Shown: piece by piece, positions 24,961 to 27,906 of the stretch
How positions within the stretch are numbered: position 1 is the stretch's first letter
Layout: each line of letters starts with the position of its first letter
Source: Escherichia phage RB16
Direction: 5' to 3' (one strand)
Sequence record: NC_014467.1
Length of the DNA stretch: 64,000 nt
Translations under genes and position numbers: made by a program
The notes under the pieces: model-generated
What the model was told of the DNA's origin: nothing
Databases searched by the model: none
What the model saw: the letters and a program-made list of their open reading frames with translations, nothing else

Positions 24961-25180
24961 TCAAGTTTTGAGAAGACCATTATAATAACAAAGATCAAGA
25001 AGGTCAAACGAGCGAAGCGAGTTTTCACGAACGAAGTGAGTGATGGGTACTACTAACTACATAATTATATTTTTATATTTTATATATAGAGAAAAATGTA
25101 GTTTTTGGTATGTTTTTTAACCAGATGTAAACTAACATTCATTCGCTTCGCTCATTCATGTACTCACTTCGTTCGTAGAT
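24961..25180. repeat. Complex inverted-repeat element with AT-rich core (three inverted-repeat pairs)
   Basis: gatcaagaaggtcaaa (24993-25008) vs tttgacttcttgatc (25180-25194); gagcgaagcga (25010-25020) vs tcgcttcgctc (25143-25153); cgaacgaagtgagt (25029-25042) vs actcacttcgttcg (25163-25176); flanking a ~70-nt AT-rich core. Confidence 0.6.
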
Positions 25181-25208
25181 TTGACTTCTTGATCATGATG
25201 GTTATAAT
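25181..25208 (+). promoter_or_regulatory. Sigma70-like promoter upstream of uvsY (TTGACT-N16-TATAAT)
   Basis: TTGACT at 25181-25186 and TATAAT at 25203-25208; uvsY starts at 25232. Confidence 0.5.
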
Positions 25209-25231
25209 ACTACTTTGTTTTGAGGTGATTC

Positions 25232-25654
25232 ATGGCTGAACTAAAACTTGAAGATTTACAGGCTGAACTCGAAAAGGATATGTTGATCGACCCTCTGAAA
25301 CTACAGAGTGAATCAGCAGACATTCCTAAGATTTGGTCTAAGTGGCTTCGATATCATTCGAATGCTAAGAAAAAACTGATCCAGCTACAGGCCAGGAAAG
25401 AAGCAGAAGTGAAAGAACGTCTTCTGTATTACACTGGACGGCATGAGACTGAAATGACTGATGTCATTTACACAGGTTCAGGTGAAATTAAGATTGCGAT
25501 CAATGGCGATCCGAAAATTGTTGAGGTTAACAAACTGATTCAGTATTTCGAACTGATTGCAGAATTCACCAGTAAGGCGCTGGACATTGTTAAGAACAAA
25601 GGATATTCTATCAAAAATATGTTGGAAATCCGAAAACTTGAGAGTGGTGCATAA
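25232..25654 (+). CDS. uvsY: Recombination mediator protein UvsY
   Basis: 140 aa; matches T4 UvsY as recalled (LEDLQ.EL.KD..ID..KLQ.E.A.....SKWL..HS..KK, RL.YY.GR, K..G..IK). Confidence 0.85.
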   Translation: MAELKLEDLQAELEKDMLIDPLKLQSESADIPKIWSKWLRYHSNAKKKLIQLQARKEAEVKERLLYYTGRHETEMTDVIYTGSGEIKIAINGDPKIVEVNKLIQYFELIAEFTSKALDIVKNKGYSIKNMLEIRKLESGA

Positions 25655-25656
25655 AA

Positions 25657-25835
25657 TGTCAGAACAAGAAGACTGCAAATGTGTGGTTTGTAAAAATCCG
25701 ATTCCTACTGCAACTGGGTTTGTAACTGAATCTGGTCGTGTGTGTGGTGTGATTTGTGCTCAGTATTTGATTGAGCGTAACAAAACCGGATTGAATGAAG
25801 CCGACGATCTGAACGAAGTTCAAATGTTGTTGTAG
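25657..25835 (+). CDS. Small Cys-rich protein (possible zinc ribbon) downstream of uvsY
   Basis: 59 aa from the ATG at 25657 (MSEQEDCKCVVCKNP...CGVIC); the track ORF 25557..25835 is an upstream extension overlapping uvsY. Confidence 0.35.
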
Positions 25836-26134
25836 GTGGAATATGAGCAAAGTTGATTCGGGATGTTTCGAAGACGAACACCCAGATTTTTAGGGTAGGT
25901 AAAAAGTTGCCATAGGCAAGACAAATCAAACTATAGGACAAACTTACGGATAGCCTAACGCCGAGGTGAGAACGTTAACTTTTGTCCGAGGCGGGTTTGA
26001 GTTCGAAACGCAAGGATCGGACGCTCTAAATACTGGTGTACCCCTTGTGGGGCTTGGCTGGCTGATTAATCAGCTTACGCAGTTTAGAATAGCGGTGTCG
26101 TCACCGCGTTAAAAATCAACTATGCTTCAAAATT

Positions 26135-26167
26135 AAAGCCCCTTCCTTTCGGTTGGGGCTTCTTTTT
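26135..26167. terminator. Bidirectional hairpin terminator between the uvsY-side transcript and uvsW.1
   Basis: aagccccttcctttcggttggggcttctttttt; A-rich on the 5' side and T-rich on the 3' side. Confidence 0.6.
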
Positions 26168-26397
26168 TAGAACTTCTCTTCTTCTCCGGTTTCAAGTTCG
26201 GCTTTGAGTTCTTCACGCCGTCCCTTGATCGCGTCACGCATTGAAATGTCATCGGATGCTGCAACTTCAACTTCCTTGACCCGCGTATTGTAATATTTTT
26301 CCAACTCTTTCAAACCGTCCAATGTACGGCACGAAGCAACTTTATTCATGAAATCATCAATTGCGGCTTCGTTAACGAATTCAGTAAAACTTTTCAT
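26167..26397 (-). CDS. uvsW.1: UvsW.1-like small helical protein
   Basis: 76 aa, the same length as T4 UvsW.1, immediately downstream of uvsW; identity not verified by alignment. Confidence 0.55.
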   Translation of the reverse strand: MKSFTEFVNEAAIDDFMNKVASCRTLDGLKELEKYYNTRVKEVEVAASDDISMRDAIKGRREELKAELETGEEEKF

Positions 26398-26406
26398 CTT
26401 AACCTC

Positions 26407-27906
26407 TTAAATTTCTACCTGTTTGATCACGTAGTCGAATCGTTCTTCATTGTAGATCCGCACACGTTCCATAGCATGTTTCATGCCGTAGTTAGTTGCA
26501 CTATATTTATTTTTGGCTGTCTTCGACTTCGCCAGCGTTGCCAGGTTATCGACGATATCCCATACAGTTGCAAGCGCTTTCGAACCATGCTTACGCAACA
26601 CGCGCCCGATCGACTGCTTAACAACAACGGCAGATTTGCAAGGGTGTGCAAAAATGATGTGATGCAGGTTCTTGATTGAAATACCTGTACTCAGTACCCC
26701 GATCGAACCGATTACAATCAAACCCTTTGTTGATTCCGCAATCTTTTTCATTTCGTTGCGGTCGTCAATGTCCGTATCGCCGTTGATCAATACAACGTTG
26801 TCATAAACCTTGCTTAACTTCTCGTACAGCCATTTTCCGTGTTCTTTATACCGGAACATCACGAATGTGTTTTCGTTCTTCTCACGGGCTAATTTAAGCG
26901 CTAATTTTAGAATCCATGCGTTGCGCCGTGTATGGCTTGTAACGTATTTGATTTCAGTCTGGTAGTCTGCACCCTTCAATTTCTTGATCTCTTCTTCTTT
27001 GTACCGAAGGAAGATTGTGTTAATTTTCAGGTTGGTGACTTGTCCATCATCCATCAAACGACGCGTATCAACTGGTTTAAAGACTTTACCGAACGCACCG
27101 ATGTATTGCATCATGTTCGTTTTCCCTTCTTTCAGGGAACCGGATAAACCCAGTTTGAAAATGCACTGATCCATTGTGTCGATAATCTTTTTGATGCTCA
27201 ACCCTGTTGATAGGTGGCATTCATCAACCATCAGGCACATGAACTGCTGGAACCACTCAGCAGGCATTTTAACCGCTGATTGCCAGGTTGAAACATAGAT
27301 TAGCGCGTTGCTGTTCTTAGCAGTACCGGAACGAATACCCAACATTGCCGATTTCGGAAACAGTCGATAGTTTGCGATGTCCTCAATCATTTGGTCAACC
27401 AGCGCCGTAGTTGGAACGATAATCAGCACTTTTCCGCTGTAATGTTCCAGACACCAACGGGAGATAAGACCCTGAATTAGAGATTTACCCGCTGACGTTG
27501 GCAGGTTCAGAACTCCTCGACGGTTTTTGATACCGTGGAATACGGATTCGCGCTGATACCAGTAAGGATCGATCTGTTTGTCACCGTCATAAACTGGATG
27601 CTCGTTAACCCACTTGTCAAAATCTTCTTGCGTGATATCCTCTGTCTCGTGGATCTTCGGATCTACCCAGATTGAATAACCGCGTGATTCTGCGAATTTT
27701 GTTACCAGATAGGCTAACCCATACGGGAGTTTTCCGTTGTAGTCCATCAGGTAAATGTACCCGTTCCATCCACCATATTTGTATTTGGCTTGATACTGAT
27801 AGCCTGGAGGCTGGAATGAAAAATAGTCACGAAGTTCATAGACAATGTTTGCTTCTGCCTGAATCTGTACGTGGCTTGTGTTTAAAAATTTGACTTCAAT
27901 ATCCAC
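26407..27906 (-). CDS. uvsW: UvsW DNA/RNA helicase (SF2)
   Basis: 499 aa; Walker A LPTSAGKS, DECH box; matches T4 UvsW as recalled (ILNLPTSAGKSLIQ, KILIIVPTTAL, GLSGSL.DGKANIMQY.G.FG.IFKPV.T..LM.DGQVT.LKIN.IFLRY, TVWD..D); initiates on GTG. Confidence 0.9.
   Translation of the reverse strand: MDIEVKFLNTSHVQIQAEANIVYELRDYFSFQPPGYQYQAKYKYGGWNGYIYLMDYNGKLPYGLAYLVTKFAESRGYSIWVDPKIHETEDITQEDFDKWVNEHPVYDGDKQIDPYWYQRESVFHGIKNRRGVLNLPTSAGKSLIQGLISRWCLEHYSGKVLIIVPTTALVDQMIEDIANYRLFPKSAMLGIRSGTAKNSNALIYVSTWQSAVKMPAEWFQQFMCLMVDECHLSTGLSIKKIIDTMDQCIFKLGLSGSLKEGKTNMMQYIGAFGKVFKPVDTRRLMDDGQVTNLKINTIFLRYKEEEIKKLKGADYQTEIKYVTSHTRRNAWILKLALKLAREKNENTFVMFRYKEHGKWLYEKLSKVYDNVVLINGDTDIDDRNEMKKIAESTKGLIVIGSIGVLSTGISIKNLHHIIFAHPCKSAVVVKQSIGRVLRKHGSKALATVWDIVDNLATLAKSKTAKNKYSATNYGMKHAMERVRIYNEERFDYVIKQVEI

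Follow-up and report, generated by a model that had tools for sequence, protein, structure and literature searches.

A plus-strand four-way-junction RNA between uvsY.-2 and uvsW.1 of Escherichia phage RB16, very probably of an uncatalogued family

The DNA analysed here, called the window, is a stretch of 64,000 nucleotides (nt) from Escherichia phage RB16 (NC_014467.1) and is about 98% identical to Citrobacter phage Miller (Straboviridae, Pseudotevenvirus, RB43 group). Its region 25836-26134, which lies between the gene uvsY.-2 and a transcription terminator, very probably encodes a genuine plus-strand structured RNA whose family is not yet catalogued. This RNA, called module A, is a 142-nt four-way junction (25889-26030) in which compensatory changes preserve the helices across five lineages. 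The result supports an earlier reading of the sequence alone, which had proposed a structured noncoding RNA here and had recommended the covariation analysis against related phages that now proves positive. The gap as a whole is best explained as the 3' untranslated tail of the transcription unit formed by uvsY, uvsY.-2 and a mini open reading frame (mini-ORF), with a core that would encode the structured RNA and an aptamer-like accessory role for it; we place the probability of this combination at roughly 0.55. For the role by itself, an accessory RNA that would bind a ligand or a universal factor is the leading guess, and a tentative one.

Architecture of module A

Minimum free energy folds, covariation and a covariance model define the following elements.

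25889-26030, plus strand: module A, the four-way-junction RNA, about 142 nt
25889-25896 with 26023-26030, plus strand: P1, the closing helix
25897-25906, plus strand: J1/2, a 10-nt joining strand, AGGUAAAAAG
25907-25919, plus strand: P2, UUGCC-AUA-GGCAA, with 5 base pairs and a 3-nt loop
25920-25925, plus strand: J2/3, GACAAA
25926-26000, plus strand: P3 arm, with sub-helices 25926-25932/25994-26000, 25936-25942/25981-25987 and 25953-25956/25964-25967
26001-26006 with 26017-26022, plus strand: P4, with a GCAA tetraloop at 26010-26013

P3, P4 and the 3' strand of P1 adjoin one another without linkers, giving junction strands of 10, 6, 0 and 0 nt. Independent folds of four divergent copies, those of the window, Yersinia phage JC221, Klebsiella phage KLB25 and the bacterial contig L055 described below, produce the same P1-P2-P3-P4 layout. 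The wider region 25836-26170 folds better than its shuffles (z = -3.47), and a covariance model (R1) matches the window at 25885-26033 with 80.8 bits. The stop codon of the mini-ORF falls inside P1, and a terminating ribosome and the fold are therefore mutually exclusive on one molecule.

The P3 arm contains the ggacaaa/tttgtcc palindrome listed by the sequence-only reading, which is present at 25936-25942 and 25981-25987. Sub-helices of P3 common to the window and L055 are compensatory, with GGACAAA/UUUGUCC in the one and ACAUU/AAUGU in the other. In the metagenomic T4-like contig L019 the arm is shorter and different, so its distal part lies outside the core. A candidate pseudoknot, noticed by eye rather than by formal count, would pair CGCC (25959-25962) with GGCG (25990-25993) in the window; its counterparts, also read by eye, are AGCC/GGCU in JC221 and UGCC/GGCA in KLB25, and the corresponding strands are mismatched in L055.

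Covariation, strand and coding potential

The comparison covers five lineages: the phages Miller, Lw1, CfP1 and Invicta; JC221; Klebsiella Slopekvirus; L019; and a bacterium with 27% G+C. Pairs of the named structure were counted in an alignment of six sequences (A3), in which GAAA stands for the variable interior of P3 because full-length alignment with MAFFT misaligned that interior. Standard pairs fill 93.9% of the alignment cells, compared with 31-44% in controls whose 3' partners are shifted by 1-3 columns. Double compensatory changes occur in 17 of the 25 pairs, and none of 500 column shuffles reaches any of the five measures. P4 appears as GUUCGA/UCGGAC, GUUUCC/GGAAAC, GCGAU/AUCGC, GAACC/GGUUC and GUUCUC/GAGAGC, and P1 as UUUAGGGU/GCUCUAAA, UUUAGGAU/GUCCUAAA, GCGGU/GCCGC, GAGAGU/GCUCUC and GCUGGU/GCCAGC. 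P1, P3 and P4 change sequence freely while their pairing is kept, and this retention of secondary structure by compensatory substitutions across homologues is the general mark of a structured noncoding RNA.

As in riboswitches, the covarying helices P1, P3 and P4 surround junction nucleotides that are invariant or nearly so (J1/2, P2, J2/3 and GCAA). From the phages to the 27%-GC bacterium, the joining strands GU-AGGUAAUAAG and GACAAA are nearly invariant, with J1/2 reading AGG(U/G)AA(A/U/G)A. P2 is also close to invariant (UGCC-AYA-GGCA, with one A-U/U-A swap at its base), and the last pair of P1, at its junction end, is an invariant U-G. The GCAA in the P4 loop hardly varies, and its closing pair, read from folds and alignment, covaries (C-G in the window, A-U in JC221, L055 and L019, G-C in Slopekvirus), so it behaves like a GNRA tetraloop that caps a short extension of P4.

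The plus strand is favoured because reading the opposite one would make C-A mismatches of the invariant U-G and of other G-U pairs. It is also favoured because the C-to-U changes of CfP1 and Invicta in P3, which replace C-G by U-G and G-C by G-U wobbles, preserve pairing, and because the plus strand of the core 25889-26030 folds more stably (-39.2 kcal/mol, z = -2.32) than the minus strand (-25.2 kcal/mol, z = +0.42).

A small protein gene, whether the 48-amino-acid (aa) GTG ORF at 25966-26112 or an antisense ORF, is a very improbable alternative, as is a degenerate tRNA or tRNA-like gene. The 48-codon frame does exist as the sole sizeable ORF inside the region, and some relatives carry short "hypothetical protein" calls over the region, but those calls differ between close relatives, and the frame has no equivalent in L055. 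In-frame stops at codon 8 in CfP1 and codon 17 in JC221 led to its rejection as a protein gene, and P4 loops of 10, 11 and 12 nt break any reading frame. For a tRNA speaks the T-loop resemblance of GTTCGAAAC, which the sequence-only reading had pointed out; the string is indeed present at 26001-26009, but it is the 5' strand of P4, where GTTCGA pairs with TCGGAC, and relatives replace it with unrelated stems. The lengths of the junction strands are unlike those of a tRNA. ARAGORN finds no tRNA or transfer-messenger RNA (tmRNA) gene in the whole 64-kb window, and Rfam yields no tRNA, tmRNA or tRNA-like match at E<=10, in line with the earlier failure to fold the region into a tRNA.

A copy in a bacterial leader

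An exact-pattern scan of metagenomes revealed, besides known phages and chance matches in coding sequence, one copy on the AT-rich contig L055. This copy scores 76.6 bits with a covariance model built from A3, compared with 13-21 bits for chance pattern matches. The covariance model and a look-up of homologues place the bacterial RNA at two sites.

L055, 2781-2931, minus strand: bacterial copy of the RNA
L064, 3827-3977, plus strand: bacterial copy of the RNA

In L055 the RNA lies directly upstream, on the same strand, of the gene for a 211-aa Nudix protein (PF00293), which overlaps an ankyrin-repeat gene by 4 nt; by eye, a plausible promoter (TTGTTT-17-TATAAC) ends about 7 nt before P1. Close homologues of the Nudix protein lead to two further assemblies, one of them a 54-kb contig of 27% G+C with a histidyl-tRNA synthetase gene. 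The RNA forms an island of 46% G+C in this 27%-GC genome, and the ankyrin repeats and low G+C content suggest a host-associated bacterium. Assemblies in which the Nudix protein is 86% identical have the RNA unaltered, and close homologues (86-98%) carry an identical RNA; Nudix homologues at 50-55% identity have no module A RNA. Neither the phage collection nor the window contains a homologue of the bacterial Nudix protein. Bacterial and phage copies agree at 97-100% over the first 32-35 nt of the core, although P1 and P4 share no sequence.

The 5'-leader position is seen in one bacterial lineage, that of the Nudix-ankyrin operon, and no gene lies downstream in any phage copy. Inspection of L055, L064 and the window showed no terminator and no convincing Shine-Dalgarno-sequestering pairing that would serve as an expression platform. 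Phages are known to use protein sponges against immune second messengers. A more specific version of the aptamer idea, which we consider quite unlikely, holds that the RNA is a new aptamer class for a nucleotide-derived small molecule: it would serve the bacterium as a riboswitch sensor for the Nudix hydrolase, and T4-like phages would have captured the bare aptamer, stripped of its expression platform, as an exchangeable accessory RNA. Binding that molecule in trans, it would be an RNA "sponge" or decoy, for example against a nucleotide-based host signal, and so the equivalent in RNA of those protein sponges.

Comparison with known RNA families and elements

Rfam 15 (4227 families) gives no match at gathering thresholds in the 64-kb window. 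At E<=10 within 25500-26500, the best hits reach 13-20 bits against thresholds of 43-70 and fall mostly on the terminator, otherwise on coding DNA. Five relatives scanned at E<=1 return nothing. Group I introns, known riboswitches and ribozymes are among the families that these negative results take in. A scan of this kind had also been recommended by the sequence-only reading. In the literature, no described RNA at this locus and no Nudix-associated orphan motif were found.

The nearest category for module A is that of the orphan riboswitch-like motifs of phages and bacteria. Weinberg and colleagues are said to have identified in 2010, by comparative genomics, two such motifs, manA and wcaG, in marine T4-like cyanophages. 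Compared with them through the Rfam scan only, module A resembles these motifs in its multi-stem junction, covarying helices and invariant joining strands, in its occurrence in T4-type phages and bacteria, and in its 5'-leader position in the bacterium. It differs in that the phage copies are not upstream of any gene, and it matches none of the 4227 Rfam families. Module A is not assigned to the riboswitch class: neither a ligand nor an expression platform was found, and the leader context comes from only one bacterial lineage.

T4 itself encodes rnaC (species 1) and rnaD (species 2), which resemble module A as small structured non-tRNA RNAs of the T4 family. They differ in locus and architecture, lying in the tRNA cluster with a tRNA-like T-arm and acceptor end. 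Homology was rejected because model R1 scores at most 10 bits on the T4 tRNA/rnaC/rnaD region and the locus differs. T4 rnaC (record L063, 1409-1547, minus strand) contains the string UAAGCCGAG, which recurs in the P3 hairpin of L055, with variants UAAAGCCGAG and UAACGCCGAG in JC221 and the window; this sharing between rnaC and the P3 arm is possibly a matter of chance.

Modular shuffling mediated by PeSLs has been described for T4-type phages (Arbiol et al. 2010, PMC2839356), where these elements, consisting of sigma-70-like early promoters and terminator stem-loops, are repeated many times in hyperplastic regions. The gap studied here is similar in that short conserved regulatory boxes flank interchangeable modules and relatives differ by insertion, deletion or replacement. 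It is different in that a late-promoter-like TAAATA, GTAC and the terminator serve as its boxes, that these carry structured RNA between them, and that a single site is involved. A PeSL cassette proper was rejected: no sigma-70-like promoter lies inside 25836-26134, and the element is single-copy in the window, with no more in positions 1-50000 of Miller.

Genomic setting

The neighbouring genes and the remaining elements of the gap are as follows.

Up to 24960: gp24, which ends here
24961-25231: gap between gp24 and uvsY, 271 nt
25232-25654, plus strand: uvsY
25656-25835, plus strand: uvsY.-2, the small Cys-rich gene, an ORF matching phrog_1043 (E 3.9e-21) and named UvsY.-2 in RB43 and Lw1
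25836-26134: region of interest, between uvsY.-2 and the terminator
25843-25893, plus strand: mini-ORF of 16 codons, MSKVDSGCFEDEHPDF and a stop, with ribosome-binding site (RBS) AGGTGGA at 25834-25840
26025-26032, plus strand: putative late-promoter-like box TCTAAATA, matching the T4-type late promoter TATAAATA at 7 of 8 positions and overlapping the 3' strand of P1
26041-26052, plus strand: small hairpin CCCC-UUGU-GGGG preceded by GUA, kept as a module junction in relatives
26057-26083, plus strand: 27-nt segment, unique in the window, with the perfect palindrome GCTGATTAATCAGC at 26061-26074
26084-26134, plus strand: module D, consisting of UUAGAAUAG, the hairpin GCGGUG-UCGU-CACCGC (26092-26107), CGUUAA and an A/U-rich stretch running into the terminator
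26135-26168, both strands: bidirectional intrinsic terminator with hairpin GCCCCTTCC-TTTC-GGTTGGGGC (26138-26159), serving the uvsY operon on the plus strand and uvsW.1/uvsW on the minus strand
26167-26397, minus strand: uvsW.1, convergent
26407-27906, minus strand: uvsW

The region brings together the remnant of an ORF, the RNA, a late-promoter-like box accompanied by hairpins, and the terminator, and thus goes beyond what the sequence-only reading had described. That reading took some 300 nt to be free of ORFs, which does not hold for the first 58 nt, where the mini-ORF and its RBS sit; apart from this remnant the gap is noncoding. Its further claim that no other long ORF-free stretch exists is incorrect: once ORFs of at least 60 aa are masked, two gaps of at least 150 nt are left in the window, this one and the similarly sized 24961-25231. 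The palindromes it listed are all present, namely gctgattaatcagc at 26061-26074, GCGGTG-TCGT-CACCGC at 26092-26107 and ccccttgtgggg at 26041-26052, and so is the bidirectional terminator said to close the region, found at 26138-26159 with its A-run and T-run flanks.

The gene uvsY.-2 is the last full gene of the uvsY operon. The mini-ORF is a truncated homologue of a 45-aa ORF found in relatives (Lw1_gp221, GAP161_215, INVICTA_282; phrog_12503, E 1.8e-32). The gap upstream of uvsY holds a near-consensus sigma-70-like promoter, TTGACT-16-TATAAT, at 25181-25208; in T4, the region upstream of uvsY is the replication origin ori(uvsY).

A perfect TATAAATA occurs at the corresponding junction in KP15-type phages, and in L019 it lies upstream of module A, 6 nt before P1. 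The spacer from the box to the next module is 6 nt throughout, except for 8 nt in JC221. The window contains nine perfect TATAAATA boxes; as all are on the plus strand, the phage appears to use this promoter type. Downstream of the box, the tail 26036-26170 folds with z = -3.5. Alignment shows the 27-nt segment in Miller- and GAP161-type phages and its absence from CfP1, Invicta and KLB25. Module D is 97% identical to that of GAP161, and in L019 and L020 its hairpin is kept with a different stem (UGUG/CACA) between conserved flanking motifs. The layout of this tail resembles that of a short small RNA (sRNA) ending in a terminator, or the 3' tail of an sRNA. In L019 a classic plus-strand terminator follows the modules.

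The terminator is a G+C-rich hairpin between convergent genes, with the A-run AAAATTAAA before it and the T-run TTCTTTTTT after it, and it is 97-100% identical in relatives, so that it has the make-up expected of the bidirectional uvsW.1 terminator. Nolan et al. (2006, PMC1524935) described a bidirectional terminator downstream of uvsW.1 as conserved between T4 and five further T4-like genomes, and the element in the window is the same one in the same place, between convergent uvsW.1 and uvsY-side genes. Its hairpin has an internal UU/UU mismatch, and the terminator of L019 and L020 is effectively its reverse complement (GCCCCAACC-AAAA-GGAAGGGGC, with an AA/AA mismatch). Judged from these strings, either an inversion of the hairpin or its symmetric evolution on the two strands seems to separate the window from L019/L020.

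Distribution among phages

A BLAST search of the 299-nt region against 50,697 phage records reveals a mosaic. Identity over positions 26-221 is 97-99% in Lw1, CfP1, Xman, Invicta and KPN-11i. Another group of phages, among them GAP161, PF-CE2 and EC-F2, has 96-98% identity over positions 203-299, and some 60 Klebsiella Slopekvirus genomes align with positions 38-90 at about 87%. Module A is the best-conserved segment of its neighbourhood, as the following identities to the window indicate.

Lw1: module A 100%, uvsY 96%, uvsY.-2 83%, uvsW.1 89%
Invicta: module A 99%, uvsY 83%, uvsY.-2 70%, uvsW.1 89%
JC221: module A 88%, uvsY 73%, uvsY.-2 70%, uvsW.1 75%

The flanks of module A in JC221 reach 70-77%. 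Such near-identity of the RNA may reflect strong selection over the whole element, recent movement between phages, or both.

The gap was read in nine relatives and in sets of 20 and 56 IMG/VR loci. It is built from interchangeable modules: a small ORF, module A, a TAAATA box followed by GTAC or GTAG, modules B, C or E, module D, and the terminator. RB43, GAP161 and KP15-type phages are without module A; there the stop codon of the small ORF leads directly to the TAAATA box, and other structured modules are present. From the stop of uvsY.-2 to that of uvsW.1, the distance is 15-63 nt in 46 T-even-type loci, in which the terminator alone fills the gap, and 274-506 nt in 10 Pseudotevenvirus/Slopekvirus loci. 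The expanded gap is therefore specific to the latter lineage; in the window, about 300 nt of extra RNA-coding sequence precede the terminator. Modules A, B, C, D and E together make the gap a lineage-specific hotspot of RNA cassettes. Being patchy in close relatives, near-identical across diverged phages and set among interchangeable modules, module A bears the marks of an exchangeable accessory cassette rather than core machinery.

Searches for further members combined exact-pattern scans of sequence collections with covariance-model scoring. No second copy of module A occurs in the window, in positions 1-50000 of Miller, or in 56 T4-like uvsW.1 loci beyond the known members. A scan with the P3-arm pattern returned chance matches in coding regions only, and a relaxed core pattern that left P2 free gave chance matches only among the matches listed. 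All core-pattern matches in genome_contigs are chance ones (13-21 bits by covariance model), and BLAST against plasmids and E. coli genomes gave nothing.

The mosaic bears on a function-free reading, in which module A is a selfish or neutral mobile cassette: hairpin-rich DNA shuffled between co-infecting phages at short boxes (the stop-codon region with GATTTTTAG, TAAATA, GTAC and the terminator). Presence and absence break exactly at the base of P1, the left and right parts of the locus have different closest relatives, and PeSL-mediated shuffling offers an analogy in T4-type phages (PMC2839356). Shuffling explains this distribution, but not the compensatory changes in three helices or an invariant core shared across genera and a bacterium. 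Moreover, the element is single-copy per genome, and P1 covaries instead of keeping a fixed terminal repeat. A cassette devoid of function is improbable.

Possible roles of module A

The RNA would be made by read-through from the promoter at 25181-25208, as no terminator intervenes before 26138, and in some relatives from a T4-type late promoter just before P1. Its GCAA tetraloop may dock on P2 and clamp the junction into a compact fold, which would explain why the sequence of the P2 helix is invariant. The invariant single strands could make up the surface to which a partner binds, much as in the aptamer of a riboswitch. Since enterobacterial phages and a 27%-GC bacterium have an identical core, that partner should be either a small molecule or some universal component of cells. 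The bacterial RNA is flanked by a promoter-like site and the Nudix-ankyrin operon and so could act in cis. For the phages, action in trans (as a decoy, sponge or scaffold), an RNA product, or a 3'-untranslated-region (3'-UTR) element seems more likely, because short RNA modules and the terminator are all that follows it there. The function would be accessory rather than essential, given the patchy distribution and the alternative structured modules at the same site.

The main rival, itself unlikely, is a cis-acting 3'-UTR element of the uvsY operon that would protect the 3' end of the mRNA, provide an entry point for processing or decay, or insulate the operon from a late unit starting at 26025-26032; such an RNA would need no partner of its own. 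Module A follows the last ORF directly with no terminator between, the stop codon and the late-promoter-like box each overlap P1, and in phages the RNA always occupies this one locus. However, a simple terminator hairpin does this job in the 46 T-even-type phages, close relatives manage without module A, and in L019 the RNA follows a late promoter and is detached from the ORF. A 32-nt invariant single-stranded/junction core shared with a bacterial 5' leader would also be unexpected if the RNA did no more than confer stability.

The idea that the RNA is a true riboswitch in the phage too, where a ligand at the junction would control either translation of the mini-ORF or read-through into module D and on to the terminator, has about as little in its favour as the function-free cassette. 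The aptamer-like conservation pattern, the 5'-leader position in the bacterium and the overlap of P1 with the mini-ORF stop codon are consistent with it. Yet no protein gene lies downstream in any phage copy, the hairpin 26041-26052 after P1 has no U-tract, no alternative antiterminator pairing was identified, and no known riboswitch family matches.

Several points weigh against our preferred combination of a 3'-tail RNA and an aptamer-like accessory role. A transcript, a processing site and a binding partner of module A are all hypothetical. The covariation statistics draw on few events, as the independent lineages known number only five, including three of related T4-like phages, and the alignment became possible only with the P3 interior exchanged for a GAAA loop. 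Recent recombination, and not selection, may account for the near-identity among phages. The riboswitch-like reading depends on a single bacterial lineage in which no expression platform was found; that copy could be a recent horizontal acquisition, and its position next to the Nudix gene accidental. Finally, ribosomes terminating at the mini-ORF stop inside P1 would compete with folding.

To our knowledge, almost no structured RNAs have been assigned in T4-family phages beyond tRNAs, introns and the unexplained rnaC and rnaD, even though few viruses have been studied as thoroughly. Module A adds an RNA family with riboswitch-grade conservation that is common to enterobacterial phages and a distant AT-rich bacterium, and its locus is a lineage-specific hotspot where different structured RNA modules take the place of the classical T-even gap of 15-63 nt with its terminator. 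This directly raises the question of what use a phage has for an aptamer-like RNA that stands on its own. Should it prove to bind a metabolite or a host factor, it would represent an RNA-based layer of phage accessory functions and a new ligand-binding fold. Even if it is only a 3'-UTR element, it is an annotation missing from dozens of sequenced Klebsiella, Citrobacter, Cronobacter and Enterobacter phages that are therapeutic candidates.

Other modules and minor observations

Module B, about 150 nt long and closed by GUAC...GUAC, occupies the same gap in RB43 (L003, about 1755-1960), Lw1 (L002, about 1990-2150), JC221 (L006, about 2000-2150) and KP15/Roth22-type phages (also L016 and L008). 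It has a hairpin with the conserved loop AAUAGUAC(A/C)(G/U)CA and 7 covarying pairs by RNAalifold, and it has no Rfam match. Module C (GUAGGGCAAGGGCAUGUUUACCGAUGG..., about 200 nt) is found in GAP161 (L009, about 990-1190) and JC221 (L006, about 1650-1990), and module E (GGAUUUGCUAACGUAACGCGCUAUAUGCGCAGG...) in L019, L020 and Pantoea phage Phynn; both look structured.

The small ORFs of phrog_12503 lie at 25843-25893 in the window, 1698-1835 in Lw1 (L002), 1668-1754 in RB43 (L003) and about 1440-1520 in L008. They end in, and sometimes repeat, an acidic motif DE[HR]PD[FL], as in RB43 (FFDERPDLIDSGCFEDEHPDF and a stop) and Roth22 (DRDERPDLLESDEHPDF and a stop). The codon changes are synonymous, which suggests that this C-terminal motif is probably translated. 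Its acidic-Pro-Phe end recalls the C-terminal tail of the single-stranded DNA-binding protein SSB, DDDIPF, and such a tail, if real, would be intriguing in a recombination-mediator operon.

In Klebsiella phage KLB25 (L007, 1474-2638) the depositors label uvsW [quoted passage not shown], which hints at an intron or a disruption in uvsW of this Slopekvirus.

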